Shown here in pieces: positions 16,802 through 61,232 of a DNA stretch of 64,000 nucleotides (position 1 is the first letter of the stretch; each line of letters begins with the position of its first letter). The notes under the pieces were generated by a model that ran no database searches, was not told the origin of the DNA, and saw nothing but the letters and a program-made list of their open reading frames with translations. The translations under genes were made by a program, and so were the position numbers. The stretch lies in contig PFBV01000005.1 of assembly GCA_002778465.1 (NCBI GenBank), positions 7,534-71,533 of the forward strand, read 5' to 3'. The DNA is from Candidatus Magasanikbacteria bacterium CG10_big_fil_rev_8_21_14_0_10_36_32 (GTDB lineage Bacteria; Patescibacteriota; Patescibacteriia; Magasanikbacterales; GWA2-37-8).

Positions 16802-16912
16802 CGAAAATGGTTTTTATTATTTATAAATATTTTATTGTTTAGTTGAACACAAAAAGTGTTCATTAATATTTAAAAAAATCACCGCTGAAAAGCGGCACTC
16901 TGCTTTTGGGCA

Positions 16913-25208: not shown

Positions 25209-25212
25209 TTTT

Positions 25213-25719
25213 ATGGAAAATGTAGGAGCTTTAAAAAAAGAAAAAATATCGGCCATCGGACAATTTTTGTTAATTTTAGGAGGTTTGATGGTTGTGCCAA
25301 TGTTTCCCAATCAGTTATTTTCTGGCCCATTGGTAAATGCCTTACTTTTTATTGTGACTGTTTTTCTTGGTTTGCGCAGTGGAATCATTTTATCTTTTGT
25401 GCCAAGTTTAATGGCTTTATTTGGCGGTTTGTTGCCGGCTATTATGGCGCCATTTATCCCATTTATTATAATAAGCAATATTATTATGGTAGTTTTATTT
25501 CATTATGTCCGACGGAAGAACTACTGGTTAGGTGTTGGTGCTGGCGGTGTGGTGAAATTTTTATTCTTAACTGTTAGCATTCAATTATATTTTCAACTTT
25601 TTTTAAACAAACCGATAACGCAGGCGATAGTGACCATGATGTCGTGGAATCAACTTTACTCAGCATTAATGGGAGGAGTTATTGCTTTTGTGTTTTTGAA
25701 ATTTGTTAAGAGAATTTAA
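25213..25719 (+). CDS. Polytopic membrane protein (about five transmembrane helices) of unknown function, embedded in the hydrogenase cluster.
   Basis: Hydrophobic helices throughout. No motif recognised. Confidence 0.4.
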   Translation: MENVGALKKEKISAIGQFLLILGGLMVVPMFPNQLFSGPLVNALLFIVTVFLGLRSGIILSFVPSLMALFGGLLPAIMAPFIPFIIISNIIMVVLFHYVRRKNYWLGVGAGGVVKFLFLTVSIQLYFQLFLNKPITQAIVTMMSWNQLYSALMGGVIAFVFLKFVKRI

Positions 25720-25725
25720 TGAATT

Positions 25726-27510: not shown

Positions 27511-27539
27511 TATTTAAATTTTTATTTAATAGGGTTAAT

Positions 27540-29219: not shown

Positions 29220-29224
29220 ATTAT

Positions 29225-29995: not shown

Positions 29996-30018
29996 TATTT
30001 TAATGAGTTAGCTTATTT

Positions 30019-37507: not shown

Positions 37508-39553
37508 ATGGCTCATAAAAAAACATTTATTAAAACCATAACCAAAACTCAGGCTCGCTGGAGAGTGGCCGGTATTGCGATTTTGGCTATTGTTTGTTTG
37601 TTTTTAGTTTTACCAAATTATGTTAATGTTGGATTAAATTGGGTTAACAATCAGGTTAATTTAGGTTTACCATTATTACCGGAGTCAAGTTTTAATTTGG
37701 GTTTGGATTTGCAAGGAGGAGCTCATTTGGTTTATAAGGCTGATGTGATCAAAGTCGCGCCAGATCAGCGTGCAGCTTCAGTTGAAGGTGTCCGAGATGT
37801 GATTGAAAGAAGAGTTCGTGGCGGTTTGGGTGTGGCTGAACCTTTGGTTCAAACCACTAAATTTGGAGAAGAACACAGAGTGATTGTGGAGTTGCCAGGT
37901 GTTACCAATGTTTCTGATGCTATTCAAATGATTGGTGAAACTCCTGTTTTGGAATTTAAAGAAGAAAATAATGATCCACCAAGAGAGTTAACTGTTACGG
38001 AGAAGAAAGATTTAGATGAATTTAATCGATTGGCTGATAAAAAAATTAGAGAAGCGAAAAATGCTTTATACAGAATGAATTTTGAAGAAGCGGTTGGGCA
38101 ATATTCTGAAGATGAAGCCAGTAAAAAAGAATCAGGTAAAATCGGATTTATTACAGAAACAGGCTATCCAGAAATGTATAGCTGGGCTAAAACAGCTGCT
38201 ATTGGTGATGTTTCCGGTGTTATTAAAACAGCCGACGGTTATAGTATAGTTAAAAAATTATCTGAACGAACCGGAGAAAAATCAATCCAAGCATCACATT
38301 TGTTAATTTGTTATAGAGGCGCTGAACGTTGTGATGCAACTTATACCAAATCGTCTGCCAAAGAAAAAATTGAAGAACTTCAAAAACAGATAAATAAAGA
38401 TAATTTTGTTGAATTAACTAAACAATATTCTACCGAACCGGGCGCCCAAGAAGGTGGCGGTGATTTAGGTTTATTTAAAAAAGGAGAAATGGTGCCGGCG
38501 TTTGAAAATGCCGTTTGGGATTTGCCAATGAACACTGTTTCGGAAGTGATTGAAACAGAATTTGGTTATCATTTAGCTATTAAAATAGGAGAAGAACAGA
38601 AAATGGAGTATGAGTTGGCAAAAATTTTTGTTCCTACAAAAAGTGTAACAGACATTATTCCTCCAGTTGGTGAATGGAAGATTACCGGTTTAGACGGGTC
38701 ATTGTTAAAACGAGCTGAGGTTGTACAGAATAGTCAAATTGGAGAAATTCAAGTTAGCTTGACCTTTAACGATGAAGGCGCAAAATTATTTGGCGATATT
38801 ACCAGACGCAATATTGATAAGCCTGTGGCTATTTTCTTGGATGGTGAAGCAATCAGTATACCGAAAGTCAACGAACCAATCCTGGATGGTAGTGCGGTGA
38901 TTACCGGTGGATTTACTTGGGATGAAGCTAAATTATTAGCGCAGCGTTTAAATTCTGGTGCATTGCCTGTTCCTGTTGAATTAATTAGTCAACAGAAAAT
39001 TGATGCCGCTTTGGGTGTTGATTCGTTGACTACCAGTTTTAAGGCCGGATTGATTGGCTTATTACTGGTTATTATATTTATGGTATTCTATTATCGTTTA
39101 CCGGGTTTAATTTCAGTCTTAGCTTTATTAATTTACGCGGCTATCACATTAGCCATCTTTAAGGTTATTGGTGTTACCTTGACCCTTTCTGGAATTGCAG
39201 GTTTTATACTATCTGTTGGTATGGCAGTAGACGCGAATGTGTTGGTATTTGAACGTTTAAAAGAAGAATTAAAACAGGGTAAAAGCTTAAAACCGGCAAT
39301 GGAAGAAGCTTTTGTTCGCGCTTGGACTTCTATTCGTGACAGTAATGTTACCACATTAATCAGTTGTGCATTTTTAATTTGGATGGACATTGGTTTTGTT
39401 CAGGGTTTTGCCGTTACGTTGGCAATTGGTATTTTAGTTAGTATGTTTACTGCTATTATTGTCACTCGAAATTTAATGCGTGTATTTTTTAGCTGTTTCA
39501 AAGACAAAGCTAATTGGTTGTTTTTGGGAAGCTCGTCTAATAAAGAACAATAA
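37508..39553 (+). CDS. secD: Protein translocase subunit SecD with a parvulin-type (PpiC) peptidyl-prolyl isomerase domain inserted in the periplasmic region.
   Basis: SecD N-terminus LNLGLDLQGGAHLVY. Parvulin signature IQASHLLICY...GGGDLGLFKKGEMVPAFENAVWDLPMNTVSEVIETEFGYHLAIKI. C-terminal SecD/F transmembrane bundle. Confidence 0.8.
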   Translation: MAHKKTFIKTITKTQARWRVAGIAILAIVCLFLVLPNYVNVGLNWVNNQVNLGLPLLPESSFNLGLDLQGGAHLVYKADVIKVAPDQRAASVEGVRDVIERRVRGGLGVAEPLVQTTKFGEEHRVIVELPGVTNVSDAIQMIGETPVLEFKEENNDPPRELTVTEKKDLDEFNRLADKKIREAKNALYRMNFEEAVGQYSEDEASKKESGKIGFITETGYPEMYSWAKTAAIGDVSGVIKTADGYSIVKKLSERTGEKSIQASHLLICYRGAERCDATYTKSSAKEKIEELQKQINKDNFVELTKQYSTEPGAQEGGGDLGLFKKGEMVPAFENAVWDLPMNTVSEVIETEFGYHLAIKIGEEQKMEYELAKIFVPTKSVTDIIPPVGEWKITGLDGSLLKRAEVVQNSQIGEIQVSLTFNDEGAKLFGDITRRNIDKPVAIFLDGEAISIPKVNEPILDGSAVITGGFTWDEAKLLAQRLNSGALPVPVELISQQKIDAALGVDSLTTSFKAGLIGLLLVIIFMVFYYRLPGLISVLALLIYAAITLAIFKVIGVTLTLSGIAGFILSVGMAVDANVLVFERLKEELKQGKSLKPAMEEAFVRAWTSIRDSNVTTLISCAFLIWMDIGFVQGFAVTLAIGILVSMFTAIIVTRNLMRVFFSCFKDKANWLFLGSSSNKEQ

Positions 39554-40759: not shown

Positions 40760-42142
40760 ATGCCGCCGATTATTTTTGACACACCTTTTGGTTTTAGTAT
40801 TGATCTGTCTTTTTGGCAGGATTTTTTCAGCATGTCCATTTCACAACAGTTGAAAGGTTTTTTTGTTTTTATTATTTGGTGGGCGGTAGCGTTAATATTA
40901 TTTAATTTTGCGTTACAAAAATGGGTGGCTTGCCGGCAAAAAAAATATGTCAGTGATTGGCAGTGGTCTGTTTTAGCGGTGGATGTACCAGCTTTGTATG
41001 TTCAATCACCAAAAGCAGTAGAACAAATTTTTGTTAATTTAAGCGGCGCGGCTTTTTCACCAAAATTATTTGATAAATATTGGACAGGTAAAATACCAAA
41101 ATGGTTTAGTTTTGAAATTATAAGTATTGAAGGTTATATTCAGTTTTTGGTTCGTACGGAATCGGAATTTCGTGATTTGGTTGAAGCGGCTATTTATGCC
41201 CAATATCCGGAAGCAGAAATTACTGAGGTAGAGGATTATGTTGGAAATATTCCAGATATGTTTCCAAATGAAACGCATGAAATTGCTGGTGCGGAATTCA
41301 CTTTGTTACAAAATGAAGCTTATCCGATTCGTACTTATCCGCATTTTGAATATAAAATCAGTAAAGATGTTGTTTTTAGTGATCCAATGGCGGCAATTTT
41401 GGAAAATTTTTCACGCATCGGTTCAGGAGAAAATTTTTGGATGCAATTGGTGGTTAAACCAGCGGATAACAGTTGGAAGAAAAATGGAATTGATTTAGTT
41501 AAAAAAATAATTTCCAACAAAAAAGAATCTAAAGCGCCGTCAATTGTTTCGGTGGTTGGAGGTTTGCCGGAAGTTGCATTGAAAACAGCTATTCAAATTT
41601 GGAATTGGGAATTTGAAACAGAAAAGAAGGAAGAAACTTCTGGTAAAGTTTCAGATTTAACGCCGGGAATGAAACAGGTAGTGGAAGCAATTGAAGAAAA
41701 AATTTCTAAACTTGGTTTTTATTCTCGTTTAAGAGTTTTGTATTCGGCAAAAAAAGAAGTTTTTAATCCACGCAAATGTTTGGCTGGTTTAGTAGGTTCT
41801 TTAAATCAGTTCTATATCGCTGATCGTAATGGTTTGGCGGCGCAAAAAGCCGGAGGTTCCGATTTGGTCTTATCTTTTAAACAAAGAAAATTAAAATTTT
41901 TTAAGAGCTCCAAGGTAAAAGCTGTGAATGAACCCTATGTTTTAAATATTGAAGAGTTGGCTACTTTGTGGCATTTTCCGTTACCTGACGTAAAAACACC
42001 TCTAGTACAAAAATCATCAGCTAAACGCGGTGAACCGCCGACAAATTTACCTGTGGATAGTCCTGATAGTTTACCAACCAAAGATGAAGGTATTACGGAT
42101 GATTTACCAGTTGTTCCACCAGAAGAATTGCCATATGCCTAA
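40760..42142 (+). CDS. Paralog of the N-terminal (non-ATPase) region of the VirB4/TrbE-like ATPase encoded at 54997-57552. One N-terminal transmembrane helix. No P-loop.
   Basis: IYAQYPEAEITEVEDY...LVVKPADNSWKKNGIDLVKKI...EELATLWHFPLPDVKTP aligns with IHAQYPHAEITEETDY...YVVRPASTEWRKDGVRIIREI...EEMASFWHLPTSLTETP of the 851-aa protein. Confidence 0.55.
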   Translation: MPPIIFDTPFGFSIDLSFWQDFFSMSISQQLKGFFVFIIWWAVALILFNFALQKWVACRQKKYVSDWQWSVLAVDVPALYVQSPKAVEQIFVNLSGAAFSPKLFDKYWTGKIPKWFSFEIISIEGYIQFLVRTESEFRDLVEAAIYAQYPEAEITEVEDYVGNIPDMFPNETHEIAGAEFTLLQNEAYPIRTYPHFEYKISKDVVFSDPMAAILENFSRIGSGENFWMQLVVKPADNSWKKNGIDLVKKIISNKKESKAPSIVSVVGGLPEVALKTAIQIWNWEFETEKKEETSGKVSDLTPGMKQVVEAIEEKISKLGFYSRLRVLYSAKKEVFNPRKCLAGLVGSLNQFYIADRNGLAAQKAGGSDLVLSFKQRKLKFFKSSKVKAVNEPYVLNIEELATLWHFPLPDVKTPLVQKSSAKRGEPPTNLPVDSPDSLPTKDEGITDDLPVVPPEELPYA

Positions 42143-43994: not shown

Positions 43995-45971
43995 ATGTGC
44001 GAAAAAATGAAGCGATTTTGGTTGTCAATCAGTGTGATTATTGTGATTTTGATGTTTGTGAGTTGTGGTACTGTGACAGCTTTTGTTCCGCCGGATATCA
44101 GTTTGTCGGTTCTTGATTCTGACATGTTTGACAATGGTGTCATAAATCCACCGTCATCAAAAGTTCCCAGCAGCGTAGCGGTTCCCTTTGAGGCTTTGGA
44201 AACCGAACAGTTACTCAAAAATTTGGTTATTCCCGCCTGTAATTATCGTGATATCACTCTTCGTTTGGCTGATCCGGGAGTTGAAATTCCAGAAGTGGTA
44301 AACACAAACCCGCCAAATTATAAAATTGATGATGAACGACAGTTTTGGGTGTCTAATGTTGACACTGGAAAGTATTACAGTATTATCGCCAAGTTGGTGT
44401 ATAAGACTGAGCATGCTTATATTTGGTTGGAAAAAGGAGCCAAAACTCAATTGGTAAGTCTGAAAAAGGCGGCTGATTTATGGGATAAAAAGTATTATCC
44501 CACAGATCGTGAGTTTTTCGGCAGTGAATGGTCGCCCGGCGTGGATAATGATGCCCGTATTAATTGGCTTATCTCAGATAAAATGGGTGAACATGCGGCT
44601 GGTTATTACAGTAGCATGGATGAATATAGTAAATTAGTTAACAAATATTCCAATGAAATGGAAATGTTCTATCTCAGTTCTGAAAATAATCCGGCCGCTG
44701 TTCCGTATTTTAATGGAGTATTGGCGCATGAGTTTGCTCACATGATTCAATGGTATCACCATTCCAATCAAGCAAATTGGATTGATGAGGGTTTGGCCGA
44801 GTTAGCTGTTCAAATTAATGGTTTAGATCCTGGTTTGAAGCGAATTCGGTTTGCATATAATCCGGACATTCAGCTAAATTCTTGGCCTGAATTGGATAGT
44901 GCTACCGCTTATTATGGTGCCGCCTATATGTTTATGTCTTATTATTTGGATCGTTTTGGAAAAATTGCTACTCAAGCGTTGATTAGTAGCACATCATACA
45001 GTACAGCAGCAATAGACGAAGCTTTGAAAGATAAAAACATTACTTTCAATCAGGTGTTTGCTGATTGGACAATCGCTAATTATATTAATAATTCGAATAT
45101 TGGTAATGGTGAGTACGCTTATCGTACCATTCAACCAACTCGTTTTAAAGCTTGTCAGAAGATTCAGCCAAGTGATTATCCGATAGATATTACTGATAGT
45201 GTTGCTCAATACGGAACTGATTATATTGAAATTTCAGGACATACTGATTTGGAAGTAAAATTTACTGGTGATTCAACTGTTGGTTTGACTGCAGTTACCG
45301 CTCACAGTGGAAAATATATGTGGTGGGGTGGTTCAAATAATGCCAGCGACGCAACCTTGACACGGACATTTGATTTGTCCGGCGCTGAAAAGGCAACATT
45401 GACTTTTTGGACATCGCATGATATTGAAGAAGGATACGATTATGTTTTTGTAGAAGCTTCCGTTGATGGTAAACATTGGACAACTTTACAGGGTACTAAC
45501 ACTGTAATTGATAATCCTAACGGAGCTAATTACGGTTTTGGTTATACTGGTACAAATAATGGTTGGGTTCAAGAAAAAATTAATCTAAGCCAATATGCCG
45601 GAAATAAAGTTCAAATTCGTTTTGAATATATTACTGATGCAGGATTAACCAAGTCTGGTTTTTTCTTGGATGATATTGCAATTCCTGAAATTGGTTATAT
45701 GTCTAATGTAGAGAAGAATAATGGTGGTTGGACAGCGAGAGGATTTGTCCGTAACGCCAATATTTTGCCACAATACTGGTCAATTCAACTTATTACTGTT
45801 GGTTTGACTACTACGGTTGAGAAATTGCCAGTAACCCAAAATGCTACAGGAAATTGGACTGTTCATTTTAAAAAGGATGATACGCGTTATACTGTGTTGG
45901 TAATCAGCGGTTTGACACCGATCACATTGGAACGACCAAGTTATAAGTTGGTTGTTAATATTAAAAAGTAA
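43995..45971 (+). CDS. Secreted zinc metallopeptidase (HExxH...E gluzincin) with a C-terminal beta-sandwich domain resembling a pre-peptidase C-terminal domain.
   Basis: GVLAHEFAHMIQWYH followed by NWIDEGLAELA. N-terminal signal or lipoprotein-like MKRFWLSISVIIVILMFVSCG. The C-terminal part reads YDYVFVEASVDGKHWTTLQG...GWVQEKINLSQYAGNKVQIRFEY. Confidence 0.6.
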   Translation: MCEKMKRFWLSISVIIVILMFVSCGTVTAFVPPDISLSVLDSDMFDNGVINPPSSKVPSSVAVPFEALETEQLLKNLVIPACNYRDITLRLADPGVEIPEVVNTNPPNYKIDDERQFWVSNVDTGKYYSIIAKLVYKTEHAYIWLEKGAKTQLVSLKKAADLWDKKYYPTDREFFGSEWSPGVDNDARINWLISDKMGEHAAGYYSSMDEYSKLVNKYSNEMEMFYLSSENNPAAVPYFNGVLAHEFAHMIQWYHHSNQANWIDEGLAELAVQINGLDPGLKRIRFAYNPDIQLNSWPELDSATAYYGAAYMFMSYYLDRFGKIATQALISSTSYSTAAIDEALKDKNITFNQVFADWTIANYINNSNIGNGEYAYRTIQPTRFKACQKIQPSDYPIDITDSVAQYGTDYIEISGHTDLEVKFTGDSTVGLTAVTAHSGKYMWWGGSNNASDATLTRTFDLSGAEKATLTFWTSHDIEEGYDYVFVEASVDGKHWTTLQGTNTVIDNPNGANYGFGYTGTNNGWVQEKINLSQYAGNKVQIRFEYITDAGLTKSGFFLDDIAIPEIGYMSNVEKNNGGWTARGFVRNANILPQYWSIQLITVGLTTTVEKLPVTQNATGNWTVHFKKDDTRYTVLVISGLTPITLERPSYKLVVNIKK

Positions 45972-46016: not shown

Positions 46017-46112
46017 TACATTGACAAATACTTAAAAAGGTGATATAGTACTATGTTCTTTACAATAAAACTCTAGTTGGGTAAAAACCAACTACGCCAA
46101 AGGAGGCGTAAA

Positions 46113-47015
46113 ATGGACGAATTTTTGGAAATGAGAACACACCAGAGAAAAGATTGGTTAATTAAGTTAGCAGTTGTAATTATATTATCTGGTTGTCTCG
46201 TAGTGTTTTGTTGTTGGGTTTTTCCTCAGATGAGCTTGTCACCAAGCGTAACTAAGGCATTTATACCTGAAACACTGCCGCCGGCACAGTCTGATCCGAT
46301 GGATAGGTTGGAAAATGATTTGCTCTCTGCTTCGTTCGTTGTGTATGGTTTTTCAAAAGATGGAGAACACAAAAACATTCAATGTTCGGCTACAGTTTTT
46401 GAAAAAGAAGGCAATATTTATCGTTTAATAACTTCTGCTCATTGTTTGGTTGAAGATGAACAATACGATGGTATTGTTAGAGTGTTGCCTTATAATATTT
46501 TCATCGCCCATAACAGTTTGGACAGTCTAATTTTTTCTGCTCGACTGGTTGCTATTGGTTTTCAAGGTCGCTATGATGATTTTGCTGTATTGCAAGCGGA
46601 AATTGTAGACGATACGATTCCTGCTATTCCATTAGCCAAAAGTGACCCGGTGATAGGCGAAGAAGTGGTGAATGTTTCTTTTCCGTCTCTTGTTGGTCGG
46701 CAGTTGGTTAGAGGAATAACAATGATTGAACAAGTAGAAATAAGTTCGGGTGAGATGAAGGGGGATAAAGTTACTGTTTTTGATTTAACTTCTGGTTCTG
46801 GTTCGTCCGGTTCGGCCATTGTTAGTCGAGAACAAAAAGCCATTGTTGGTGTTTTGACTGGTGGTTATTCACAAGAAGGCCAGTTGTTAAATGAAACAAC
46901 TGTAGGTTTGCCGGTTAGCAAGTTTCGTATTTTTTGGGAAGCGGTTAAGGCCGATGAATACCCGTGGTACCAGTCATCCGAAGAGTCGGTTGGTAGTGGA
47001 GACTTTTTATATTAA
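46113..47015 (+). CDS. Secreted trypsin-like serine protease, paralog 1 of 6 (S1/Trypsin_2-like).
   Basis: AGGAGG ribosome-binding site 8 nt upstream. N-terminal transmembrane or signal segment. Catalytic motifs TSAHC (His), DDFAVL (Asp) and GSGSSGSAIV (Ser). Confidence 0.65.
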   Translation: MDEFLEMRTHQRKDWLIKLAVVIILSGCLVVFCCWVFPQMSLSPSVTKAFIPETLPPAQSDPMDRLENDLLSASFVVYGFSKDGEHKNIQCSATVFEKEGNIYRLITSAHCLVEDEQYDGIVRVLPYNIFIAHNSLDSLIFSARLVAIGFQGRYDDFAVLQAEIVDDTIPAIPLAKSDPVIGEEVVNVSFPSLVGRQLVRGITMIEQVEISSGEMKGDKVTVFDLTSGSGSSGSAIVSREQKAIVGVLTGGYSQEGQLLNETTVGLPVSKFRIFWEAVKADEYPWYQSSEESVGSGDFLY

Positions 47016-47241: not shown

Positions 47242-48162
47242 ATGGAAAAGAAGATGTTTGGTTTCGTTATGTTTATTATGGCATTCGTTTGCGCAATGAT
47301 GCTCAGCGGGTGTGGAGCAGTCAGTTTCTATAGCGGTTCCAATACCGTGATCAATGCCAGTGGCAATAGCCATTCCGTCAGTGTCCTAGAGAAGGATATG
47401 GAATCGGCCGTGGCTCTGCTTTACGCCAAGAAGGATGACGGGCAGCTGCGCATGTTCTGTACAGCAACCGCTTTTGAGCGTTCGGGTAAGACTTACCGTT
47501 TTGTTACCGCCGCACATTGTGTCGCCGAAGATATCAACGGCATGGTGGAACTGGTACCGTACCAGTGGTTTATCAGTTTCGACGAACCGGGCGTCAAGAC
47601 ATTTTATCCTGCCAAACTGCTCGGCGTTGGTTATCAGAGTCGCGGTGATGATTTCGCCGTACTGGAAACCACCCTGGATCGCCAGATTCCGGTTATTCCG
47701 ATGTCAGCTACCGATGCCGAACTCGGTGAACAGGTAAGTAATGTCGCTTCGCCGCTCGGTTTGGGCAAGCAGCTCTTCCGCGGACATGTGACCACTGTTT
47801 ATATGGACAGGCCTGTTGTAGGTGCCGGTCTTAATTGGACAGGTGCAACATTGCTTCAAATCAGTTGCGGACCCGGATCTTCCGGTTCGTCTGTAGTAAG
47901 TCAGAACAGACACACTATTGTTTCTATTCTGGTCGGTATGATTTACCGAGGTCCGGCGGTGTTCATTGTTTCCATTCCGGTAACAAAGTTCAACCGTTTT
48001 TGGAGAGATATTCAAACCAATAAGTACCCTTGGTACGCGCCTGCCTTCAATGCCAACGGAATTCCCGTTTCTACAAGCAGCAGCCAGCGAGATCTTTCGA
48101 ACTTTATGAATCGGATTGATCGTGGTCTGTCGGTTGTTTTGGAACCGGAACCCACTAAGTAA
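47242..48162 (+). CDS. Secreted trypsin-like serine protease, paralog 2, with a lipoprotein-like signal.
   Basis: GGAGGG ribosome-binding site. Signal MFGFVMFIMAFVCAMMLSGCG. Catalytic motifs TAAHC, DDFAVL and CGPGSSGSSVV. Confidence 0.65.
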   Translation: MEKKMFGFVMFIMAFVCAMMLSGCGAVSFYSGSNTVINASGNSHSVSVLEKDMESAVALLYAKKDDGQLRMFCTATAFERSGKTYRFVTAAHCVAEDINGMVELVPYQWFISFDEPGVKTFYPAKLLGVGYQSRGDDFAVLETTLDRQIPVIPMSATDAELGEQVSNVASPLGLGKQLFRGHVTTVYMDRPVVGAGLNWTGATLLQISCGPGSSGSSVVSQNRHTIVSILVGMIYRGPAVFIVSIPVTKFNRFWRDIQTNKYPWYAPAFNANGIPVSTSSSQRDLSNFMNRIDRGLSVVLEPEPTK

Positions 48163-49235: not shown

Positions 49236-50195
49236 ATGGACAACAGAACGTTTAAACAAATTTGTCTTATTGCCGGCATTACATTGGTCGGCTCCATGCT
49301 TGTGGTGTTGTTGTGTATGGTGGCTTTTATGGCTGGTTCTATGAATAATCGCTTGGTTGTTCAACAGCCAATTTATGGCTACGCGCCTCCGCCGTCGATT
49401 TCCGAATCAGAGGAATCGCTTGCGCAGTTGGAAAATGACGCAATCAATGCTACTGCCTTGCTATATTTTGAAAACAAATCCGGCGGAATGGATTTTTATT
49501 GTACCGCCACCGCTTTTGAGAGGGTGGGTCATTACTATAAATTTCTTACCGCCGCGCATTGTGTTTCCAGTGACGATACTGTCAATAAAATGGTTCGTAT
49601 TAAGCCGGGGAAATGGTATATCAATTTTGATATGCCTAACAATAATGAATTTCATAGAGCGAACGTACTCGCTGCCGGTTATATGTCAGACGGAGATGAT
49701 GTAGCGGTATTGGGGGCTTATCTGGATGATTTTAACCCGATTATTAATTTGTCTCAGGAAGACGCTGTAATCGGTGAACGCATAATTAATATTGCTGGTC
49801 CGCGTGACCTTGGAAAGCAGCTTATTCGGGGTAATATCAGCCAAGTAACTCCTGGGAGAGGTTCGTTTTTGAGTGATAGAATAATGATTCAGATTCATAG
49901 CGGTGGTGGTTCGTCCGGTTCGGCGATTATTAGCCAGAATAAGAAAGCAATTGTTGGTGTATTGGTAGCTGGTTTCGGTGGTTTTTTTCAAATGGAACCG
50001 TTTTACGATGTAACTGTAGCTGTTCCTATTGGAAAGTTTCATCGTTTTTGGGCAGCTATCAAAGCGAATAATTATGAACATTTTAATTTTGAAAGTTATG
50101 AGCCGACAAATCAGCTTTCAAAGGATATGGACACTCCGGTTGATTCCGACACTGGAACAGATGCTGGAGTTGATTGTTCTAATTCGGACAAATAA
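49236..50195 (+). CDS. Secreted trypsin-like serine protease, paralog 4.
   Basis: GGGAGG ribosome-binding site. N-terminal transmembrane segment. Catalytic motifs TAAHC, DDVAVL and SGGGSSGSAII. Confidence 0.65.
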   Translation: MDNRTFKQICLIAGITLVGSMLVVLLCMVAFMAGSMNNRLVVQQPIYGYAPPPSISESEESLAQLENDAINATALLYFENKSGGMDFYCTATAFERVGHYYKFLTAAHCVSSDDTVNKMVRIKPGKWYINFDMPNNNEFHRANVLAAGYMSDGDDVAVLGAYLDDFNPIINLSQEDAVIGERIINIAGPRDLGKQLIRGNISQVTPGRGSFLSDRIMIQIHSGGGSSGSAIISQNKKAIVGVLVAGFGGFFQMEPFYDVTVAVPIGKFHRFWAAIKANNYEHFNFESYEPTNQLSKDMDTPVDSDTGTDAGVDCSNSDK

Positions 50196-52506: not shown

Positions 52507-53367
52507 TTATTGCCAAATTGGTTCGCCCGAAGTCAAAGTGTTCAACAGTTCTTTGTTGACTATTTTTACATTTGCCCATTTCCACCCGCGTTTTTTGAAA
52601 ATGTCAGGGTGGGCGATATACTGTTTTTGCGTTTTGGAAATCAGATAAATACGTTTACCGTTTTGTACTTTAACCAGAGTTTTTGGTTCTGTAAAGAGAA
52701 CACGAGCCGGGCCATTGGCTTGGCCAGTAATGCGGTCAAAATCATGTAATGTTTTCAAAATAGTATCATATTTATAGCGAAAGTCAAGCCCTTTAGGATT
52801 GCCAGAATCTTGAACAATAAATTCTTTTTTAGCATCATCAAAACCGCTTATAACCATCATGTGATAGGAAGAACCGTCTTGACGGAATCTTAAAGCGGGA
52901 TTATTCAATTCAAAACCGTAGTGCATTGAGATGACTGGTCGTTTGACCATCAATTCATTTTTTATTTCATCCAGAGTCGGATTTTCCTTAATAGTAGCAG
53001 TGAAAGATAAAAATTTATTTATAAATTGCATTGTTTCTTCGGCATTGGTATCTTTGTTAAAACCGAACAGTTCGTTTTCTAGGGTAAAAATTGGCAGCAT
53101 TAATTTTTTTGCTTCAGCGTTGGTTAATTTATTTTTTCCTTGGTAATATTGATCAATCATGGTTATGGTTGCTTCTTCGCAGGCGTTTTTCCACGGATCA
53201 ATCCATTTTCCATCCGGAACCTCAACAGCAAAAGGAATTTTTAATTTTATAAAAGTTATTTTTTTAGCCGCTAAAGATTTGATTGGATTAGATAAAATAA
53301 AAACCGCCATGAATAGCGGAATTAAAAATATGATAATATTTTTTTTCAACATATTGTTAAGAAACAA
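52507..53367 (-). CDS. Secreted or membrane-anchored putative papain-like cysteine peptidase (C39-like fold).
   Basis: N-terminal transmembrane segment. Candidate catalytic Cys in DPWKNACEEATITM. His in SSYHMMVISGFD. Weak assignment. Confidence 0.4.
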   Translation of the reverse strand: MFLNNMLKKNIIIFLIPLFMAVFILSNPIKSLAAKKITFIKLKIPFAVEVPDGKWIDPWKNACEEATITMIDQYYQGKNKLTNAEAKKLMLPIFTLENELFGFNKDTNAEETMQFINKFLSFTATIKENPTLDEIKNELMVKRPVISMHYGFELNNPALRFRQDGSSYHMMVISGFDDAKKEFIVQDSGNPKGLDFRYKYDTILKTLHDFDRITGQANGPARVLFTEPKTLVKVQNGKRIYLISKTQKQYIAHPDIFKKRGWKWANVKIVNKELLNTLTSGEPIWQ

Positions 53368-54940
53368 CTTCTCCGCCGAATTCTGTCGCTAACTCTGTTA
53401 ATACGGGATCGTTGGGAATATCGGTTTCGTTTTGCTGTGTTTGTGGATCAACTTCGCATAAAATTCTCATTTTTTCTTTAAATAATTCTTGCAAACCGTC
53501 TTCAATGGCCATTCTAGATTTTTTTTCTTCAATTTTTTCTTTATGAAATAAATAAGGCACAGTAAAAGTCAAATATTGTCCATCCCAATTTTTCAATTCC
53601 GCCATTTTTAGAACAAAAATTAAAGAATGGTATTCTTCAGATAGTTTATTGATTAATTCAGGCCAGCGATTTTGAATGTCAGCAAAAGAAATCCCAGGTG
53701 ACAACGTGTTTTTACTTTCAATCGGCTTAACAGAATTTTTTTTATGTATGGTTTTTTGTATTGTTGGTGTTTCATGTGTTTCTTTTTTTGTTTCAGATTT
53801 TTTACTGGAAGTTGCCGGTTGTACATCGTTAGAATTAGAAATTGAACCCGTATAGTCTCCACTCAACTCAATTACCATTAGTTCTAGGGGTAATTGAGGA
53901 ATAGGTGATTGTTTCATTTCTAAACGTCGGCGCATGACGGCTTCCATTATGTGAATAATTTCTTCAGTGGAAAATTTTTCAGAAAGTTCTTTAAGTTTTT
54001 TTCTGGCCGAATCATTTAAATCTGAAAAATGCAAATTTTTTTGTCCGAGTTGTGTAATCATAATGGTGCGAAGAGTTTCAATTAAATCCAGAGTAAATTG
54101 TTCCAAGTTTATCCCAGTTATTACCATTTCTCCTATTAATTCAAGAGCTTGTGTCGGATTTTTTTCAACTAGTGTTTCTAAGAAAATTATAATTTGTTCA
54201 ATGTCAGTTGCCGGCAATATTGTTTGAATATCTTTTTCTGTTATTTTTTTTAAATCAAGCGACAAAATCTGTCCAAGCAGGCTTTCGGCGTCGCGCAAGC
54301 AGCCGTCACTTTTTCCAATGATACGTTTAATAACCATTGGGTCAACTTTTATACCTTCTTCTTCGGCAATTGTCTGCATTTTTTTGGTGATTAAATCAGG
54401 AGAAATTTTTTGAAAATTAAATCGTTGGCATCGGGAAATAATAGTAGCTGGAATTTTATGCCATTCAGTGGTGGCCAAAATAAAAATTATATGAGCAGGC
54501 GGTTCCTCCAAAGTTTTAAGCAGAGCATTAAAAGCCGGAGTAGACAGCATGTGCACTTCGTCGATAATAAATATTTTATATTTGGAGTGTGATGGCCGGA
54601 ATTGTGCACTGTCAATGATATTTTCGCGTACGTTATCAACACCAGTATGTGACGCAGCATCTATTTCAATAACATCAATGTTTCTACCCTCGGTAATTTC
54701 TATACACGAAGAACATTTATTACAAGGTTCAAATTTTCTTTCTTTTCGATCCTGACAATTGACGGCCTTGGCGATTAAACGCGCCAAAGTGGTTTTGCCA
54801 ATGCCGCGCGGTCCAGAAAATAAATAAGCATGCGCCATGCGATTGGTGGCGATTTCATTGGTGATGGTTTGTGTTAGATGTTCTTGTCCGAGCAGGTCGG
54901 AAAAAGTTTGTGGACGGTATTTCCTGTAAAGAGTGGACAT
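53357..54940 (-). CDS. dnaX: DNA polymerase III subunit gamma/tau.
   Basis: YRKYRPQTFSDLLGQEH...AHAYLFSGPRGIGKTTLARLIAKAVNC (Walker A) and the zinc module CxxC. Confidence 0.85.
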   Translation of the reverse strand: MSTLYRKYRPQTFSDLLGQEHLTQTITNEIATNRMAHAYLFSGPRGIGKTTLARLIAKAVNCQDRKERKFEPCNKCSSCIEITEGRNIDVIEIDAASHTGVDNVRENIIDSAQFRPSHSKYKIFIIDEVHMLSTPAFNALLKTLEEPPAHIIFILATTEWHKIPATIISRCQRFNFQKISPDLITKKMQTIAEEEGIKVDPMVIKRIIGKSDGCLRDAESLLGQILSLDLKKITEKDIQTILPATDIEQIIIFLETLVEKNPTQALELIGEMVITGINLEQFTLDLIETLRTIMITQLGQKNLHFSDLNDSARKKLKELSEKFSTEEIIHIMEAVMRRRLEMKQSPIPQLPLELMVIELSGDYTGSISNSNDVQPATSSKKSETKKETHETPTIQKTIHKKNSVKPIESKNTLSPGISFADIQNRWPELINKLSEEYHSLIFVLKMAELKNWDGQYLTFTVPYLFHKEKIEEKKSRMAIEDGLQELFKEKMRILCEVDPQTQQNETDIPNDPVLTELATEFGGEVVS

Positions 54941-54996
54941 AAGTCAAATGTGGGATTATAAAAATCCGTCTTAAACAAAAAGTGTTTTAATTATAC

Positions 54997-57552
54997 TTAC
55001 AAACGTGGCCCGGAGTCAACACCAATTTCTCTTTTACTTGTCGCCCCAAGTTTAGAACGTTCCATAATTTCTTCTTCAACAATTTCTCTCGGGCGGCCAT
55101 ATTTTAAACGGGATAATTCTTTGATTGCCGCTGCCAGTTCGGTATTGCCTTTTTGTGGCGGATAGGGACTAAAATTAAACGGTTTAGCTGCCGTGTTGTC
55201 AATTAATAATTTTAAATAGACAGTGTATTGTTCAATATTGATTAAATCATAAGCTCCAAAAACAGGTGCAAATTCTTTAGCTAATATTTCAGCATCTTCA
55301 GTGCCAATGCGATAAACAGCAATCGTACCGGCATTTCCCAAGACAGCATCACGAACAGTGGATTTTCCTTTATTATCTTCCAGTTGTTTTAAATATTGAT
55401 GGGCAATAGTAAGATTTAATCGGTATTTTCGAGCTTCAGAAAGAATGGTGGCAATAGATTCGGTAATAAAGTTTTGAAATTCGTCTATATATAAGAAAAA
55501 GTCGTGACGTTGGTCTTCAGGAAGAGAAGCTCGTTCCATTGCTGCCATTTGCAGTTTGGAAACAATAATCATGCCCAATAAATTGGAATTAATTTCTCCA
55601 ACCAAACCTTTGGCCAAATTAACTAATAATATTTTTTTCTTATCCATTATTTCACGGAAATTAAAACCGGAATGTGTTTGTCCGACAATATTGCGAACCA
55701 TTGAATTTTCCACAAATCGTCCGACTTTGGAAATTAAATAACCAAGCATTTCCGATTTGTGAAAGTCGGAGGTTTTTGCCATTTCTTGATTCCAAAAATT
55801 TAAAACCACCGGATCTTTAATTTTCTTTTTCCATTCAGTCACAAAAGTATCATCAGTAAACATTCTTGGAATCTCAGCAATGGTACCGGGATTTTCATTG
55901 TCTGACATTAAAGTCAGCATCACATTTCTCATTTGATGTTCAAACATCGGTCCAATCATTGATGGATCGGTGACCAATTTATAAAAAATTGATATCATTT
56001 CTTGATTAATAAAATCTTTTTGATCCTCTGTTTTTGCTTCCAACATATTTAAACCAATCGGTCGTTCTACATCGGACGGATTAAAATAAATCACATCTTC
56101 TGCTCGTTCTTTTGGTACATGCTGTAAAACATACTCAACAAAATCTCCGTGCGGATCTATAACACAAACACCCTCGCCGTTTTGTACATCTTGAACGGCC
56201 AAATTTTGTAATAATACGGTTTTACCGCTGCCTGATTTACCAACCACATAGAAATGACGTCTTCGATCAGCTCTTTTCATTTTTACGATAGTTTCTTCAC
56301 CTCGATAAACAGTTCTCCCAAGAGTAATGCCTTCCCGTGGCATATTTACTGGCGGAGGGGCTTTACGAGCTCCAAGCCAGTTAATATGAGGTGTTTCAGT
56401 TAAAGATGTCGGTAAATGCCAAAAACTGGCCATTTCCTCAGTATTGGTTATCATAGATAAACCGGGTCGCATTGTTCGGTGAATTGATTCACGAATTAAT
56501 GTGTCTGGTTTTTTTGGAATAACTGCACCAAAAGAATTACCGTAACGGTAAATGTTATATTGATTAAATGAGTTTAAGATATTTTCTAAGTTTAATTGAG
56601 CTTTTTCGTTGGAGGATGAAGTACTGACAACACGAATTGTAATTTCCAATCCGCCGTGGCTGATTTTATCTTCCATTCCTTTTAACATTTCTTCTTCCAT
56701 TTGTGTCATTCGGTAAGATTCAGTGGGGGATTGTTCCTTGTTTTGTTTTTTTGGTTTAGACCATTTTTTAAATAAGTTTGATATACCGGTTCGGCGCACT
56801 ACATTTTCAAATTTTTCTCCGGCGCGTATTTCTCTAATTATTCTTACTCCGTCTTTTCGCCATTCGGTTGAAGCCGGACGAACGACGTATTGAATAATAG
56901 CCCCCTCATTTTCTACTAGTTTGCTTAAGGGATTTAATAATCCCACAAGTGGATCACTGTCCATTTGTTTATATGTTTTGAACGGAAAAACTGATTTTTG
57001 TTTGAACCACAGGTAAGCGCCGACTATGTGGCTATCCGGTTTGAAAATATTATAATCGGTTTCTTCGGTAATTTCCGCGTGTGGATACTGAGCGTGGATT
57101 TGTTGAGAAACAAAATCTTTCATTTTATCAGGTACGGCCACATAAAAAGATATTTTACTGTCTCTGACCACCACTTCAAATGAAAAAAGTTCTTTTGGTC
57201 CCAAAAACCATGACATAAATCCTTGTTCGCGCCGCAATCCGGCAAGGGAAGAAAATAAAGTGGCAGCTATGGCAATTTGCTCACGATTTTGACTAACGGT
57301 ATCAGTGCCAGCATTTAAAGTTTCACCTTTTTTTTCTTTTGGTACGCGGATAAGTATGATGGTTTTGTGAAAAGCCTTACTATCAAGATTTTTTATTTGA
57401 AGAATTTTTCTAATCAAATTAAAAACAATAATTAAAGCGGCAACAAAAAGTGGAATCAGTAATAACCAAAGCCAATCCGCGCTTGGTGTTGGAATTGTTG
57501 AGGCGCTTAAAGACATTGTGTCAAGCGGATTGATTGGAAATTGATTTTCCAT
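54997..57552 (-). CDS. VirB4/TrbE/CagE-family (T4SS-type) ATPase with an N-terminal transmembrane helix and a large N-terminal domain.
   Basis: Walker A HFYVVGKSGSGKTVLLQN. Walker B-like FFLYIDEFQNF. The RKYRLNLTIAHQ motif matches the VirB4 RK...TQ signature. N-terminal transmembrane segment WLWLLLIPLFVAALIIVFNL. Confidence 0.6.
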   Translation of the reverse strand: MENQFPINPLDTMSLSASTIPTPSADWLWLLLIPLFVAALIIVFNLIRKILQIKNLDSKAFHKTIILIRVPKEKKGETLNAGTDTVSQNREQIAIAATLFSSLAGLRREQGFMSWFLGPKELFSFEVVVRDSKISFYVAVPDKMKDFVSQQIHAQYPHAEITEETDYNIFKPDSHIVGAYLWFKQKSVFPFKTYKQMDSDPLVGLLNPLSKLVENEGAIIQYVVRPASTEWRKDGVRIIREIRAGEKFENVVRRTGISNLFKKWSKPKKQNKEQSPTESYRMTQMEEEMLKGMEDKISHGGLEITIRVVSTSSSNEKAQLNLENILNSFNQYNIYRYGNSFGAVIPKKPDTLIRESIHRTMRPGLSMITNTEEMASFWHLPTSLTETPHINWLGARKAPPPVNMPREGITLGRTVYRGEETIVKMKRADRRRHFYVVGKSGSGKTVLLQNLAVQDVQNGEGVCVIDPHGDFVEYVLQHVPKERAEDVIYFNPSDVERPIGLNMLEAKTEDQKDFINQEMISIFYKLVTDPSMIGPMFEHQMRNVMLTLMSDNENPGTIAEIPRMFTDDTFVTEWKKKIKDPVVLNFWNQEMAKTSDFHKSEMLGYLISKVGRFVENSMVRNIVGQTHSGFNFREIMDKKKILLVNLAKGLVGEINSNLLGMIIVSKLQMAAMERASLPEDQRHDFFLYIDEFQNFITESIATILSEARKYRLNLTIAHQYLKQLEDNKGKSTVRDAVLGNAGTIAVYRIGTEDAEILAKEFAPVFGAYDLINIEQYTVYLKLLIDNTAAKPFNFSPYPPQKGNTELAAAIKELSRLKYGRPREIVEEEIMERSKLGATSKREIGVDSGPRL

Positions 57553-57553
57553 G

Positions 57554-58123
57554 CTAAAGTTGATTTTTATTTTTTAGACCTATAATGTAATCGGTTTTTA
57601 TTTTTGCCTCTTGTTCAAGAAAAAAACGGTTTACGCCGGGAAGCATATATAACCATTCTAAAATTAATCTAAATATTTTTTTTACTTTAATTTTGGTAGC
57701 GTGCAGCAGTTCGCTTATTTTATCCGCTGTTTCCTCGCCTTTTATTTTAAATTCTTGTTGGGCGATAGGGGAGAGTTTTTCGTATGATTCCCGAATTCCT
57801 TCCTCCATTATTTTTTCCACCTTTAATGCTAATTCGTCTCGGATTATCCGTGTCGGCGGGATAATTTTTTTCTTTTTAAAAGGCAGTTTGGAAAGTAATG
57901 ATTTTTCCTGTGTGGCCGATTTTGTTTCAGGAAATGATTTTTTTTCGTTTGGCTCTGTTTCCTTCTCATTATTGGTTATTTCCGCGGTTGGAATATTCAA
58001 AGAATCCGGCTTTGTTTCAATGGCCGGGTAGCGTTCAATCTCAGGAATTATATTCTCCTGTTTTTTGATATCCATAACAATATTAATGATATTATTATAC
58101 CATATTATATGAAATGAGGACAA
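57554..58123 (-). CDS. Hypothetical charged or coiled-coil protein, co-transcribed upstream of the VirB4-like ATPase.
   Basis: Abuts the ATPase start with a 1-nt gap. Lys/Glu-rich. No motif. Confidence 0.4.
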   Translation of the reverse strand: MSSFHIIWYNNIINIVMDIKKQENIIPEIERYPAIETKPDSLNIPTAEITNNEKETEPNEKKSFPETKSATQEKSLLSKLPFKKKKIIPPTRIIRDELALKVEKIMEEGIRESYEKLSPIAQQEFKIKGEETADKISELLHATKIKVKKIFRLILEWLYMLPGVNRFFLEQEAKIKTDYIIGLKNKNQL

Positions 58124-59228: not shown

Positions 59229-59261
59229 AAGATCGCCTTGTTGCAACTTGGCGATCTTTTT
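59229..59261 (+). terminator. Intrinsic terminator (aagatcgccttgttgcaacttggcgatctttt).
   Basis: 9-bp stem plus T-run after corA. Confidence 0.5.
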
Positions 59262-59351
59262 AAATTGACTAAATACTTGTCATGTGCTAAGTTACTTTTG
59301 GTGTTCTTTAAAAATTATTCAGCCAAAAAGTCACTTTGGTCGGAGGAAACA

Positions 59352-60140
59352 ATGAGTCAGAAAAAAGAGTCTATGAGTCGTTTGGAAAAAGATTTGCTGG
59401 CGGCTACAGTTTTTTGTATCATGATTGTAAATATAACGGTTAAGGATGAAAAAACCGGCAGGAAAAAGAGGCAGGACGATGTTCGTCAATTTTCCGCCAC
59501 CGCCTTTGAAAAGGAAGGCAACATTTATCGATTTATAGCGGCGGCGCATTGTATTGGTGACAATAATCAGATGTGTGATGATATTATGAATAATTCGTTG
59601 AAAATTCCTCCCATGATTTATTTGTCCAAAAATAGTCTGGCTACTAAACAGGGTATCTATAGAGCTAAATTAGTAGCTATGGGAAAATTGTCTGAAGGTG
59701 AAGATTTTGCCGTTTTGGAAGCGGAAATAAACGATTGTGAAATAACGGTTATCCCATTAGTAGATTCTAATTTGGAAATGGGCGATGAAGTCATTAATAT
59801 TGCCACGCCAATTGGTTGGGACAAAACATTGTTTCGTGGTTATGTCGCCAATCTAAATATGGATAAATTTAAATATTCCATCGGAGAAGATTCAATTGAA
59901 ATTAAAACTGCCATACTGTGCAGTCTGCCATCTGGACCTGGTTCTTCCGGTTCAGCCATTGTCAGTGAAAAACATGGCGGCATTGTGGCAATTTTAGTAT
60001 CCAGTTTGAAATCCGGAAAAAAAACAATTGCGCCCGTTTCGGTTGTTTTACCGATTAGAATGTTTAAAGAGTTTTGGAAGATGTTTAAATTGGAAATTAA
60101 ATCTAATCAATATTTTGAAGAAAATATTGATTTTGTTTAA
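59352..60140 (+). CDS. Secreted trypsin-like serine protease, paralog 5.
   Basis: GGAGG ribosome-binding site. Start at MSQKKESM. Catalytic motifs AAAHC, EDFAVL and SGPGSSGSAIV. Confidence 0.65.
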   Translation: MSQKKESMSRLEKDLLAATVFCIMIVNITVKDEKTGRKKRQDDVRQFSATAFEKEGNIYRFIAAAHCIGDNNQMCDDIMNNSLKIPPMIYLSKNSLATKQGIYRAKLVAMGKLSEGEDFAVLEAEINDCEITVIPLVDSNLEMGDEVINIATPIGWDKTLFRGYVANLNMDKFKYSIGEDSIEIKTAILCSLPSGPGSSGSAIVSEKHGGIVAILVSSLKSGKKTIAPVSVVLPIRMFKEFWKMFKLEIKSNQYFEENIDFV

Positions 60141-60305: not shown

Positions 60306-61232
60306 ATGGTTAAGAAGAATGAATCCGGACTTGTTACTCAACCTAAAGAAAGTTTTTTGTCGCCATTGGAACAAAAGGCGATGGCGGCAACCGGTGTGAT
60401 GACATCTATGATGGAAGCTGTAGATAGTGCTACTGGAGAAAAATTTTTGATACCTCGGGGTATGTGTACAGCCACGGCCTTCAAACGCCGTGGCAATGTC
60501 TATTATTTTATTACCGCCGCGCATTGCGCTGGTATAGCCGGACCTACTCAGGGTGATATGTGTTTACCTGAAGATAGTGATCGTGGTTTTATTAGAGTAA
60601 TGCCATGGAAATGGTTTATTGATTTGAGCGAAGGCGGTTTATCACTGTCTGTTTTGCATGAAGCAGAACTTTATTCCATTGGTCACACTGGACAAGGCGA
60701 TGATTTTGCTGTTTTTAAAGTTAAGTTGCAAAAACCTATTCCAGTTATGCCACTGGCTCTCTGGGATCCGCGAGTTGGTGAGCCCGTCATCAATGTGGCC
60801 GCGCCGGCGAATTTGGGCAAGCAGCTTTTTCGTGGTCATGTCAGTAGAGAATATTTTTCGACTAGGGGTGACAAAGATGCGGGAAAGGTTTTGTTTCAGT
60901 TGCCGTGCGCCCCAGGTTCTTCCGGTTCGTCCATTATTAGTCAGTCGCAAAAAGGTATTATTGCTATTTTGAATGAATCAATTAGTATTTCTTCGACCAC
61001 AGATGATGGTAAAGAATTTGTTACTCAACTTAATTCTGCCGCTTTGCCTGTTAGTCGGTTCGTGAAGTTTTGGAAATTATCCGAAAAAGGTGAATACCCT
61101 TATCCGGCTTTTGTTCCGTTGAATTTTCAGCCATGGATGCTTGGCTTGGAGGATATACCCGAATTAAACGATGCTTGTGGCAATTGTGAAGGTTGTGAAT
61201 GTCATTCTAAAAAAAACATTCACGGAAGATGA
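60306..61232 (+). CDS. Trypsin-like serine protease, paralog 6 (no obvious N-terminal hydrophobic segment).
   Basis: AGGAGG ribosome-binding site. Catalytic motifs TAAHC, DDFAVF and CAPGSSGSSII. The C-terminus is Cys-rich (CGNCEGCECH). Confidence 0.65.
   Translation: MVKKNESGLVTQPKESFLSPLEQKAMAATGVMTSMMEAVDSATGEKFLIPRGMCTATAFKRRGNVYYFITAAHCAGIAGPTQGDMCLPEDSDRGFIRVMPWKWFIDLSEGGLSLSVLHEAELYSIGHTGQGDDFAVFKVKLQKPIPVMPLALWDPRVGEPVINVAAPANLGKQLFRGHVSREYFSTRGDKDAGKVLFQLPCAPGSSGSSIISQSQKGIIAILNESISISSTTDDGKEFVTQLNSAALPVSRFVKFWKLSEKGEYPYPAFVPLNFQPWMLGLEDIPELNDACGNCEGCECHSKKNIHGR

Follow-up and report, generated by a model that had tools for sequence, protein, structure and literature searches.

Gene organization at the ATPase locus

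The DNA analyzed here, a stretch of 64,000 nucleotides of contig PFBV01000005.1 from a genome of “Ca. Magasanikbacteria” (hereafter called the window), encodes an 851-amino-acid (aa) ATPase directly upstream of dnaX. A first-pass annotation of the sequence had related this protein to the type IV secretion systems (T4SSs) and labeled it a VirB4/TrbE-family ATPase. Its sequence relates it instead to the type IV coupling proteins (T4CPs), and its identity as a T4CP relative with a VirB4-like N-terminal half is well supported. The family to which it belongs is here called DUF8128-T4CP, and related loci are cited by their L numbers. The ATPase gene and its immediate neighbors are listed below by their positions in the window.

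52507..53367, reverse strand: Peptidase_C39_2-like protein (Pfam 1.7e-10)
53357..54940, reverse strand: dnaX, DNA polymerase III gamma/tau (NCBIfam PRK05563 1e-145, TIGR02397 2e-131)
54990..55019, reverse strand: promoter-like site, TTGACT-18-TATAAT, 11/12 sigma-70-like, at the end of the ATPase gene and upstream of dnaX (consensus match only)
54997..57552, reverse strand: DUF8128 and T4CP-type ATPase, 851 aa (list of open reading frames (ORFs), Pfam, AlphaFold2 model)
57554..58075, reverse strand: small charged helical protein, 173 aa from ATG 58075 (189 aa from TTG 58123 in the ORF list)
58094..58123, reverse strand: promoter-like site before the small ORF, with TG ahead of the -10 hexamer (consensus match only)

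In this lineage, the order of the small helical protein, the ATPase, dnaX and the C39-like peptidase is fixed. The ATPase gene and dnaX are co-directional and separated by 56 nt, with dnaX downstream, the C39 gene overlaps dnaX by 11 nt, and a tRNA-Gln gene is located 130 nt past the C39 gene. No terminator-like site was found at the junction of the ATPase gene and dnaX. The operon with dnaX and the peptidase gene that had been described previously is consistent with this arrangement, but the junction also contains the 11/12 promoter-like match, and that the ATPase gene and dnaX form a single operon is plausible without being proven. The small charged protein noted upstream of the ATPase is also present, although ATG 58075 is a likelier start than TTG 58123. 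It contains 33 lysine and arginine residues and 29 aspartic and glutamic acid residues over its 173 aa, and the stop of its gene is placed 1 nt from the ATG of the ATPase gene, to which it is apparently translationally coupled. In L001, L002, L008, L013, L022, L023 and at least 15 loci from metagenomes, the ATPase gene is directly preceded by the gene for a homolog of the small protein. No match to the small protein was obtained in searches of Pfam, PADLOC, PHROGs and PDB sequences.

Domains, motifs and predicted structure of the ATPase

The protein is 100% identical to PIT88086.1 from “Ca. Magasanikbacteria”, for which PF26449 (DUF8128) and T4CP domains have been precomputed. PF26449 was taken from this precomputed annotation, the local copy of Pfam being without it. 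The features of the protein are as follows.

57412..57480, reverse strand: single transmembrane (TM) helix, approximately aa 25-47 (hydropathy scan; a long helix at aa 25-60 in the AlphaFold2 model)
56353..57372, reverse strand: N-terminal domain, approximately aa 61-400, DUF8128, with a predicted fold like that of the VirB4 N-terminal domain (AlphaFold2 model, structure search)
55153..56328, reverse strand: ATPase domain, approximately aa 409-800, with a RecA-like core and a helical insertion at approximately aa 509-637 (AlphaFold2 model)
56218..56241, reverse strand: Walker A, GKSGSGKT, aa 438-445 (G438, G441, G443 and K444 invariant in 68 homologs)
55474..55485, reverse strand: Walker B, DEFQ, aa 690-693 (D690, E691, F692 and Q693 invariant in 68 homologs)
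55396..55431, reverse strand: RKYRLNLTIAHQ motif (RKYR...AHQ), aa 708-719 (its glutamine aligns with the conserved glutamine of TrwB)

The ORF, the three motifs and the N-terminal TM helix reported in the first-pass annotation are thus all present, but the motifs are not characteristic of VirB4 as had been claimed, since they are common to VirB4 and T4CPs and do not discriminate between them. The ATPase belongs to the FtsK-HerA superfamily, and its two Walker motifs and the sensor motif are intact. A basic stretch comes after the single TM helix, for which reason the rest of the protein is taken to be cytoplasmic. DUF8128 is positioned right after the N-terminal TM helix and is followed by the T4CP-type ATPase domain, the total length falling within the range of about 800-1100 aa. 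Of the 240 homologs listed, nearly all have a precomputed PF26449, and DUF8128 is always N-terminal among the 150 listed of 1930 matching representatives.

AlphaFold2 models inferred from an alignment of 68 sequences had a pLDDT of 80.9 for the full-length protein, and a pLDDT of 83.6 and a pTM of 0.83 for aa 55-415. There was no P-loop protein among the structure-search matches of the N-terminal domain model, and the likeness must therefore be to the N-terminal domain of VirB4. A Foldseek search agreed independently, the top 14 matches all being TrwK chains. The two-domain layout, in which a C-terminal RecA-like ATPase follows a VirB4-type N-terminal domain, is seen in the predicted structure, and the VirB4-like architecture suggested earlier is borne out at this level.

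Relationship to coupling proteins and VirB4

The Pfam profiles that match the ATPase above their gathering scores are those of TrwB_AAD_bind (5.8e-12, 45.6 bits, cut-off 20.5), T4SS-DNA_transf (9.4e-11, 41.7 bits, cut-off 20.1), TraG-D_C (27.9 bits, cut-off 22) and DUF87. The best NCBIfam matches are TraD/VirD4 models, yet these fall far below every equivalog cut-off, and the protein therefore belongs to the T4CP family but to no curated subfamily. Against the VirB4 models, TIGR00929 (VirB4_CagE) gave 21.2 bits versus a cut-off of 643, and there was no match at E <= 0.1 to the Pfam models CagE_TrbE_VirB, AAA_10, TraC_F_IV and P-loop_TraG. Consistently, a PDB sequence search, whether with the single protein or with a profile of 68 sequences, returned only TrwB and DotL, with TrwB as the best match and no VirB4. 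The profile searches that had been proposed as a check of the family label thus identified TraG/TrwB-like coupling proteins as the best matches, which refutes the assignment to VirB4/TrbE. The identity of the ATPase domain to reference sets of VirB4 and T4CP proteins is 13-17%. Comparisons with hhalign were uninformative, the templates being single sequences and the query of low diversity (Neff 2.4): the family alignment matched TrsE/VirB4 of pGO1 with a probability of 55% in a stretch of 90 columns around Walker B, TrsK/T4CP of pGO1 with 4%, and the VirB4 of L088 with 41% in the Walker A region only, while TrsD of pGO1 and the 218-aa protein at the TrsD position in L088 gave no match.

The genomic distribution also separates the protein from VirB4. 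An ortholog with 73% identity, KKQ41333.1, is listed as a T4CP (t4cp1, 98% coverage, VirB4 proximity “No”) in Table S3 of Quinonero-Coronel et al. 2025 (PMC12102498), and the “Ca. Magasanikbacteria” genome that encodes it contains VirB4, TrsD and VirB3 as adjacent genes at a separate site (Quinonero-Coronel et al. 2025). At locus L088, a 586-aa protein adjoining PrgI matches P-loop_TraG, AAA_10 and CagE_TrbE_VirB and represents the canonical VirB4 of the Patescibacteria, and a DUF8128-T4CP gene is located 2.2 kb from this set of PrgI, the 218-aa protein and VirB4. VirB4 loci contain VirB3/PrgI, usually with VirB6/VirB8 alongside, and no PrgI, TrsD, VirB6 or TrbL was found in the 64 kb around the ATPase gene. 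The ATPase is not the VirB4 of the organism.

Similar to known T4CPs (TrwB of R388, VirD4, TraD and DotL), the protein contains a RecA-like ATPase domain with Walker A, Walker B and the conserved glutamine, a helical insertion at the position of the all-alpha domain, and an N-terminal membrane anchor. It differs from these in that a module of about 340 residues, resembling the VirB4 N-terminal domain and absent from the matched solved T4CP structures, is placed between the anchor and the ATPase domain. Furthermore, only a single TM helix is predicted in it, where T4CPs usually have two, and its gene is chromosomal and conserved, not borne on a plasmid or an integrative and conjugative element (ICE), with no relaxase or T4SS gene nearby. 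With VirB4 (TrwK of R388, VirB4 of T. pseudethanolicus, TrsE of pGO1 and the TrsD and VirB4 pair of the Patescibacteria), it shares a length of about 800 aa and the order of an N-terminal domain and a C-terminal ATPase. However, it fails all VirB4 sequence models, has a TM helix of its own, is not adjacent to VirB3/PrgI, and coexists with a canonical VirB4 in Embleya, at L088 and in the “Ca. Magasanikbacteria” genome mentioned above. The likeness to the HerA, FtsK and DptH translocases is at the superfamily level only, and the N-terminal domains, partners and contexts differ. By sequence and model, the protein can thus be described as a T4CP-type motor that carries a VirB4-type docking domain in a VirB4-like overall layout.

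T4SS-related genes in the window

All ORFs of at least 150 aa in the 64 kb were scanned against Pfam, and reference proteins were used as queries in tblastn searches. These scans detected no VirB4, VirB3/PrgI, TrsD, VirB6/TrbL or relaxase in the window, and neither VirB3, VirB4, VirB6, TrsD nor a relaxase was found in the 6 kb upstream of it. The previous statement that other T4SS components are missing holds for VirB6 and the relaxase, but not in general, since the window contains two proteins with T4SS_pilin domains and a paralog of the DUF8128 domain.

7..1956 and 1995..12590, forward strand: two surface proteins with an N-terminal T4SS_pilin domain (PF18895, VirB2-like; 6e-8 and 2e-7, respectively)
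40760..42142, forward strand: stand-alone DUF8128 paralog, 460 aa, with one TM helix and without ATPase (BLASTP 26% over 317 aa, E 5e-29; phrog_5156 3.9e-13)

In the two surface proteins, the T4SS_pilin domains are fused to Big_5, TIG, Laminin_G_3 and pentaxin-like adhesin domains. The edge of the window truncates the first, which is 715 aa long in L026, and the second is 3531 aa long. The 6 kb upstream of the two genes encode M50 peptidases, a signal peptidase and hisS, with no adjoining virB4. The first-pass annotation had suggested that a domesticated VirB4/TrbE-family ATPase powers these proteins. The giant proteins do carry pilin domains, and the pilin of known T4SSs is handled by VirB4 and not by the coupling protein. 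We consider such a role in their assembly or energization improbable. The assignment to VirB4 on which it depends has been refuted by the VirB4 models and the PDB profile search, and the family member coexists with a separate, canonical VirB4 both in Embleya and in a “Ca. Magasanikbacteria” genome. Moreover, the pilin-domain genes are located 42 kb from the ATPase gene and are unlinked to it in the relatives, so that the proposed powering of the pilin-like proteins is unsupported.

The stand-alone DUF8128 gene is located directly after secD/secF, and a gene of the same kind is found next to secDF in L023 (PF26449) and L002. The relation of this protein to DUF8128-T4CP is roughly that of TrsD to VirB4.

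Conservation of gene order and inheritance

The ATPase gene has a GC content of 0.36-0.37, similar to that of the rest of the window. The order of cysS, corA, the small protein, the ATPase, dnaX and C39 is identical in L022, L023, L031 and L034, and the C39 gene takes the equal position in L001 and L002 as well as in these four loci. Among the 54 related loci with enough flanking sequence, dnaX was located at most 3.5 kb downstream in 21, mostly in closer relatives: in six of the seven loci with an ATPase identity of at least 55%, in 11 of the 15 with 44-55%, and in four of the 32 below 44%. The linkage to dnaX is real but lineage-specific, and the general pattern is that of a core gene among housekeeping genes. 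In the Paceibacteria, the gene follows those for trigger factor, clpP and RNase Y, and HU is encoded immediately downstream (L017) or about 5.6 kb downstream (L020). The gene was located near virB4 in only one of about 100 related loci from the Patescibacteria (L088).

In view of the conserved synteny, the native GC content and the absence of an integrase and a relaxase, we conclude that the ATPase gene is a vertically inherited chromosomal gene and not part of an ICE. The earlier suggestion that it is embedded among housekeeping genes rather than in a mobile conjugative element is thereby upheld. Of the features of an ICE, neither an integrase, a relaxase, mating-pair genes, an atypical composition nor a patchy distribution was found. 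A conjugative or mobilizable element integrated next to the tRNA-Gln gene, of which the ATPase gene would be a remnant or cargo, might be suggested by the affiliation of the gene with the T4CPs, by the tRNA gene itself and by the serine recombinase and Rep genes past C39 in L022. Nevertheless, such an origin is extremely improbable, as the window contains no integrase, relaxase or other transfer genes and has a native base composition, many genomes with protein identities of 44-83% retain the order with cysS, corA and dnaX, and thousands of orthologs follow the taxonomy. The recombinase, a large serine recombinase, and the Rep (REP_ORF2-G2P) are encoded in L022 at 15130-17825, directly past the C39 gene, where the window has the tRNA-Gln gene, and the edge of the conserved block on this side may be a hot spot for integration.

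A role as the ATPase component of an anti-phage defense system, similar to HerA or to mad8 of the MADS system, was also considered. It would agree with matches to mad8 (6e-17) and HerA (3.5e-8) in PADLOC, and with an orphan homolog in Bradyrhizobium that is encoded among genes for CHAT-domain proteins. However, the PADLOC matches cover the shared ATPase core only and are weaker than the T4CP matches, and no nuclease, Sir2, methylase or other effector was found next to the ATPase gene. The near-universal, syntenic conservation at a single locus also differs from the patchy distribution of defense islands, and we regard this role as very improbable.

In many relatives, a conserved protein of about 220 aa, absent from the window, is encoded between the ATPase gene and dnaX (L001-L012, L035, L036, L039-L044 and others; for example L005:12646-13311). 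Its N-terminus is acidic, and its C-terminal region, of about 110 aa, is very conserved (IIEGVFDGENMIGPDGKQYSVPANYASKSKLVEGD...). Although it has at least 8000 homologs, it has no match in Pfam, PADLOC, PHROGs or PDB and is annotated as “hypothetical” in every source. In some of the Patescibacteria, two DUF8128-T4CP paralogs are encoded close together, as in a metagenome-assembled genome of the Berkelbacteria (L014:10001-12556 and 14358-17705) and in L064 and L069. The paralogs of such pairs are separated by the 220-aa protein and a sigma-70-region-4/HARE-HTH protein, and the pairs fit the roughly two T4CP homologs per genome in the survey of 2025 (PMC12102498).

A candidate for the missing coupling ATPase

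The Patescibacteria represent a large share of the bacterial diversity and depend on host cells. To our knowledge, their chromosomal T4SS has no recognized coupling protein, relaxase or substrate, and it is essential in the one genetically tractable species. The essential T4SS cluster of Southlakia contains no recognizable coupling protein (Wang et al. 2023). A survey identified 5,713 VirD4-type T4CP homologs in 2,918 genomes from the Patescibacteria, in which relaxases are almost absent (Quinonero-Coronel et al. 2025). That a T4SS-type ATPase is stranded among housekeeping genes in a genome from the Candidate Phyla Radiation has thus already been published, and the gene in the window is an ordinary member of a catalogued family, so that our result for the window chiefly corrects the earlier label, in that the gene does not encode a stray VirB4. 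In the literature searched, there was no mention of DUF8128, no statement of a VirB4-type N-terminal domain on the T4CP homologs of the Patescibacteria, and none of full-length relatives in actinobacterial conjugative clusters or Bacillus phages, or of the synteny with dnaX.

The source genome likely encodes a T4SS, to judge from the T4SS_pilin domains in the window, the VirB4 score of “Yes” for both Magasanikbacteria CG10 assemblies of matching GC content in Table S1 (PMC12102498), and the Southlakia cluster without a coupling protein. Outside the Patescibacteria, a tblastn search against plasmids identified an 812-aa protein in Embleya (Streptomycetaceae) with 28% identity over aa 97-821 (E 7e-74), which also matched the N-terminal domain alone (E 2e-9). 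The cluster that encodes it is present on two replicons, NZ_CP108778 and NZ_CP108785, and contains genes for a TrbL-like protein, PrgI, a true VirB4 (AAA_10, TraC_F_IV), the family member, a Replic_Relax relaxase and an NlpC-P60 protein. This protein, annotated as a “conjugative DNA transfer family protein”, is homologous over its full length, including DUF8128, and has the same domain order and size as the ATPase. It differs in that it is located between the true VirB4 and the Replic_Relax relaxase, whereas the gene in the window has no such neighbors. Judging from this gene order, the Embleya protein fills the slot of the coupling protein beside a separate VirB4. An association with a relaxase and/or a T4SS is thus observed for the homolog in Embleya, but neither in the window nor at most of the related loci.

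These comparisons suggest, with good support from sequence, that a very large family spread throughout the Patescibacteria originated from the second, or “coupling”, ATPase of the conjugation systems of monoderm bacteria. Because of the gene contexts in Embleya and at L088 and the fold of the docking domain, we lean towards the explanation that the ATPase is the missing coupling ATPase of a dispersed, relaxase-less chromosomal T4SS in the Patescibacteria, to which we assign a probability of about 45%. Its T4SS partnership and the kind of substrate are inferred here. The ATPase would form a membrane-anchored hexameric ring. Its VirB4-like N-terminal domain would dock it to membrane partners, as the N-terminal domain of VirB4 docks to VirB3/VirB8, and the hydrolysis of ATP would feed a polymer towards a channel in the membrane, the polymer being either DNA or unfolded protein.

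Several observations weigh against a role as the coupling ATPase. There is no evident relaxase or other substrate-recruiting factor, and the presence of virB4 in the source genome rests on the table of Quinonero-Coronel et al. 2025 and the matching of the assembly by GC content. In the same survey, only 148 of the 5,713 T4CP homologs are located near virB4, T4CP homologs occur in 2,918 genomes as compared with 2,417 for VirB4, and the T4CP homolog of Southlakia is non-essential while its T4SS is essential. In the comparison of predicted structures, the ATPase domain did not tell T4CPs and VirB4 apart. Orphan homologs of the ATPase domain with other N-termini were identified in Streptomyces, Bradyrhizobium and Sulfitobacter, and full-length homologs are encoded by phages, including gp156 of Bacillus phage G (25% identity over aa 84-839) and proteins in SPO1-like phages. 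The ATPase module can therefore apparently function without a T4SS. The phage proteins belong to phrog_5156, which matches the ATPase with 2.7e-89 over aa 117-834, and include members from phage G and the Herelleviridae (SP-10, Goe26). They share the full length of the ATPase, including the N-terminal domain, and are encoded near genes for DNA metabolism; in phage Goe26 (vB_BsuM-Goe26, L111), the genes upstream of the homolog at 5854..8388 include recA, polA and one for a ligase. They differ in being phage-encoded, with 20-25% identity, and in lacking any T4SS context. What role a membrane-anchored ATPase of the T4SS type would have in a phage is not obvious. The genomes scored “No” for VirB4 in the survey table contain T4CP matches, but also TrsD/VirB3, and probably represent incomplete assemblies that do not discriminate between a coupling role and the alternative of exaptation.

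This alternative, which we regard as the main rival and as somewhat less probable, holds that the protein has been exapted as a stand-alone membrane-anchored translocase that acts independently of a T4SS in a housekeeping DNA transaction, such as the handling of DNA at the membrane or septum or the export or import of DNA, the linkage to dnaX reflecting co-regulation with replication. It would agree with the near-universal presence of the family in the Patescibacteria, where it is commoner than VirB4 and almost never near virB4, and with the phage homologs of equal architecture, which have no T4SS available. Neighbors with functions in DNA metabolism also recur, with dnaX in the Magasanikbacteria group, HU in the Paceibacteria, and recA, polA and the ligase gene in phage Goe26, and exaptation of the T4CP homologs “cannot be ruled out” according to the survey (PMC12102498). 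On the other hand, the synteny with dnaX is specific to a lineage, only four of the 32 loci with less than 44% identity showing it, the ATPase gene and dnaX have a promoter-like site between them, and the neighborhoods elsewhere consist of assorted housekeeping genes. The VirB4-type N-terminal domain and the contexts in Embleya and at L088 instead point to T4SS partners.

A related idea is that DUF8128-T4CP represents a third lineage of T4SS-type ATPases, maybe intermediate between VirB4 and the T4CPs, in which the docking domain was either retained or acquired. These proteins would then serve as T4SS-independent, membrane-anchored DNA translocases tied to replication in the Patescibacteria and in large Bacillus phages, with the stand-alone DUF8128 protein and the small co-transcribed protein as membrane partners. 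Such a role would account for the neighborhoods with dnaX, HU and the replication module of the phages, although we consider it unlikely. The separate idea that the ATPase replaces FtsK was dropped, since a literature search returned papers on FtsK in the saccharibacterium TM7x.

As the missing motor of the T4SS in the Patescibacteria, the DUF8128-T4CP family is the obvious candidate, and if it does not have this function, it would represent an abundant and unexplained membrane translocase. The VirB4-type N-terminal fold and the Embleya homolog in the coupling slot provide two handles, one on the docking partners and the other on whether the clade bridges VirB4 and the T4CPs in evolution.

Other genes in the window

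Five paralogous genes for Trypsin_2 serine proteases, of about 300 aa each, are located on both sides of the block with the ATPase gene and dnaX. These and other genes in the window are listed below.

46077..47015, 47242..48162, 49236..50195, 59238..60140 and 60306..61232, forward strand: Trypsin_2 serine proteases
43995..45971: InhA-like protein with a MAM domain
20592..21104, forward strand: membrane protein of 170 aa, no Pfam match
21111..23546, forward strand: secreted protein of 811 aa with a long low-complexity middle part rich in V/T/E/P, no Pfam match
37508..39553, forward strand: SecD
24213..32052, forward strand: compact fermentative energy module

The SecD protein contains an internal PpiC-type peptidyl-prolyl isomerase (Rotamase) domain, and the same fusion is found in L023. 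The energy module encodes a NuoF-like flavoprotein, an ECF-type S component, an [FeFe] hydrogenase, a two-subunit 2-oxoacid:ferredoxin oxidoreductase and an ADP-forming acetyl-CoA synthetase.

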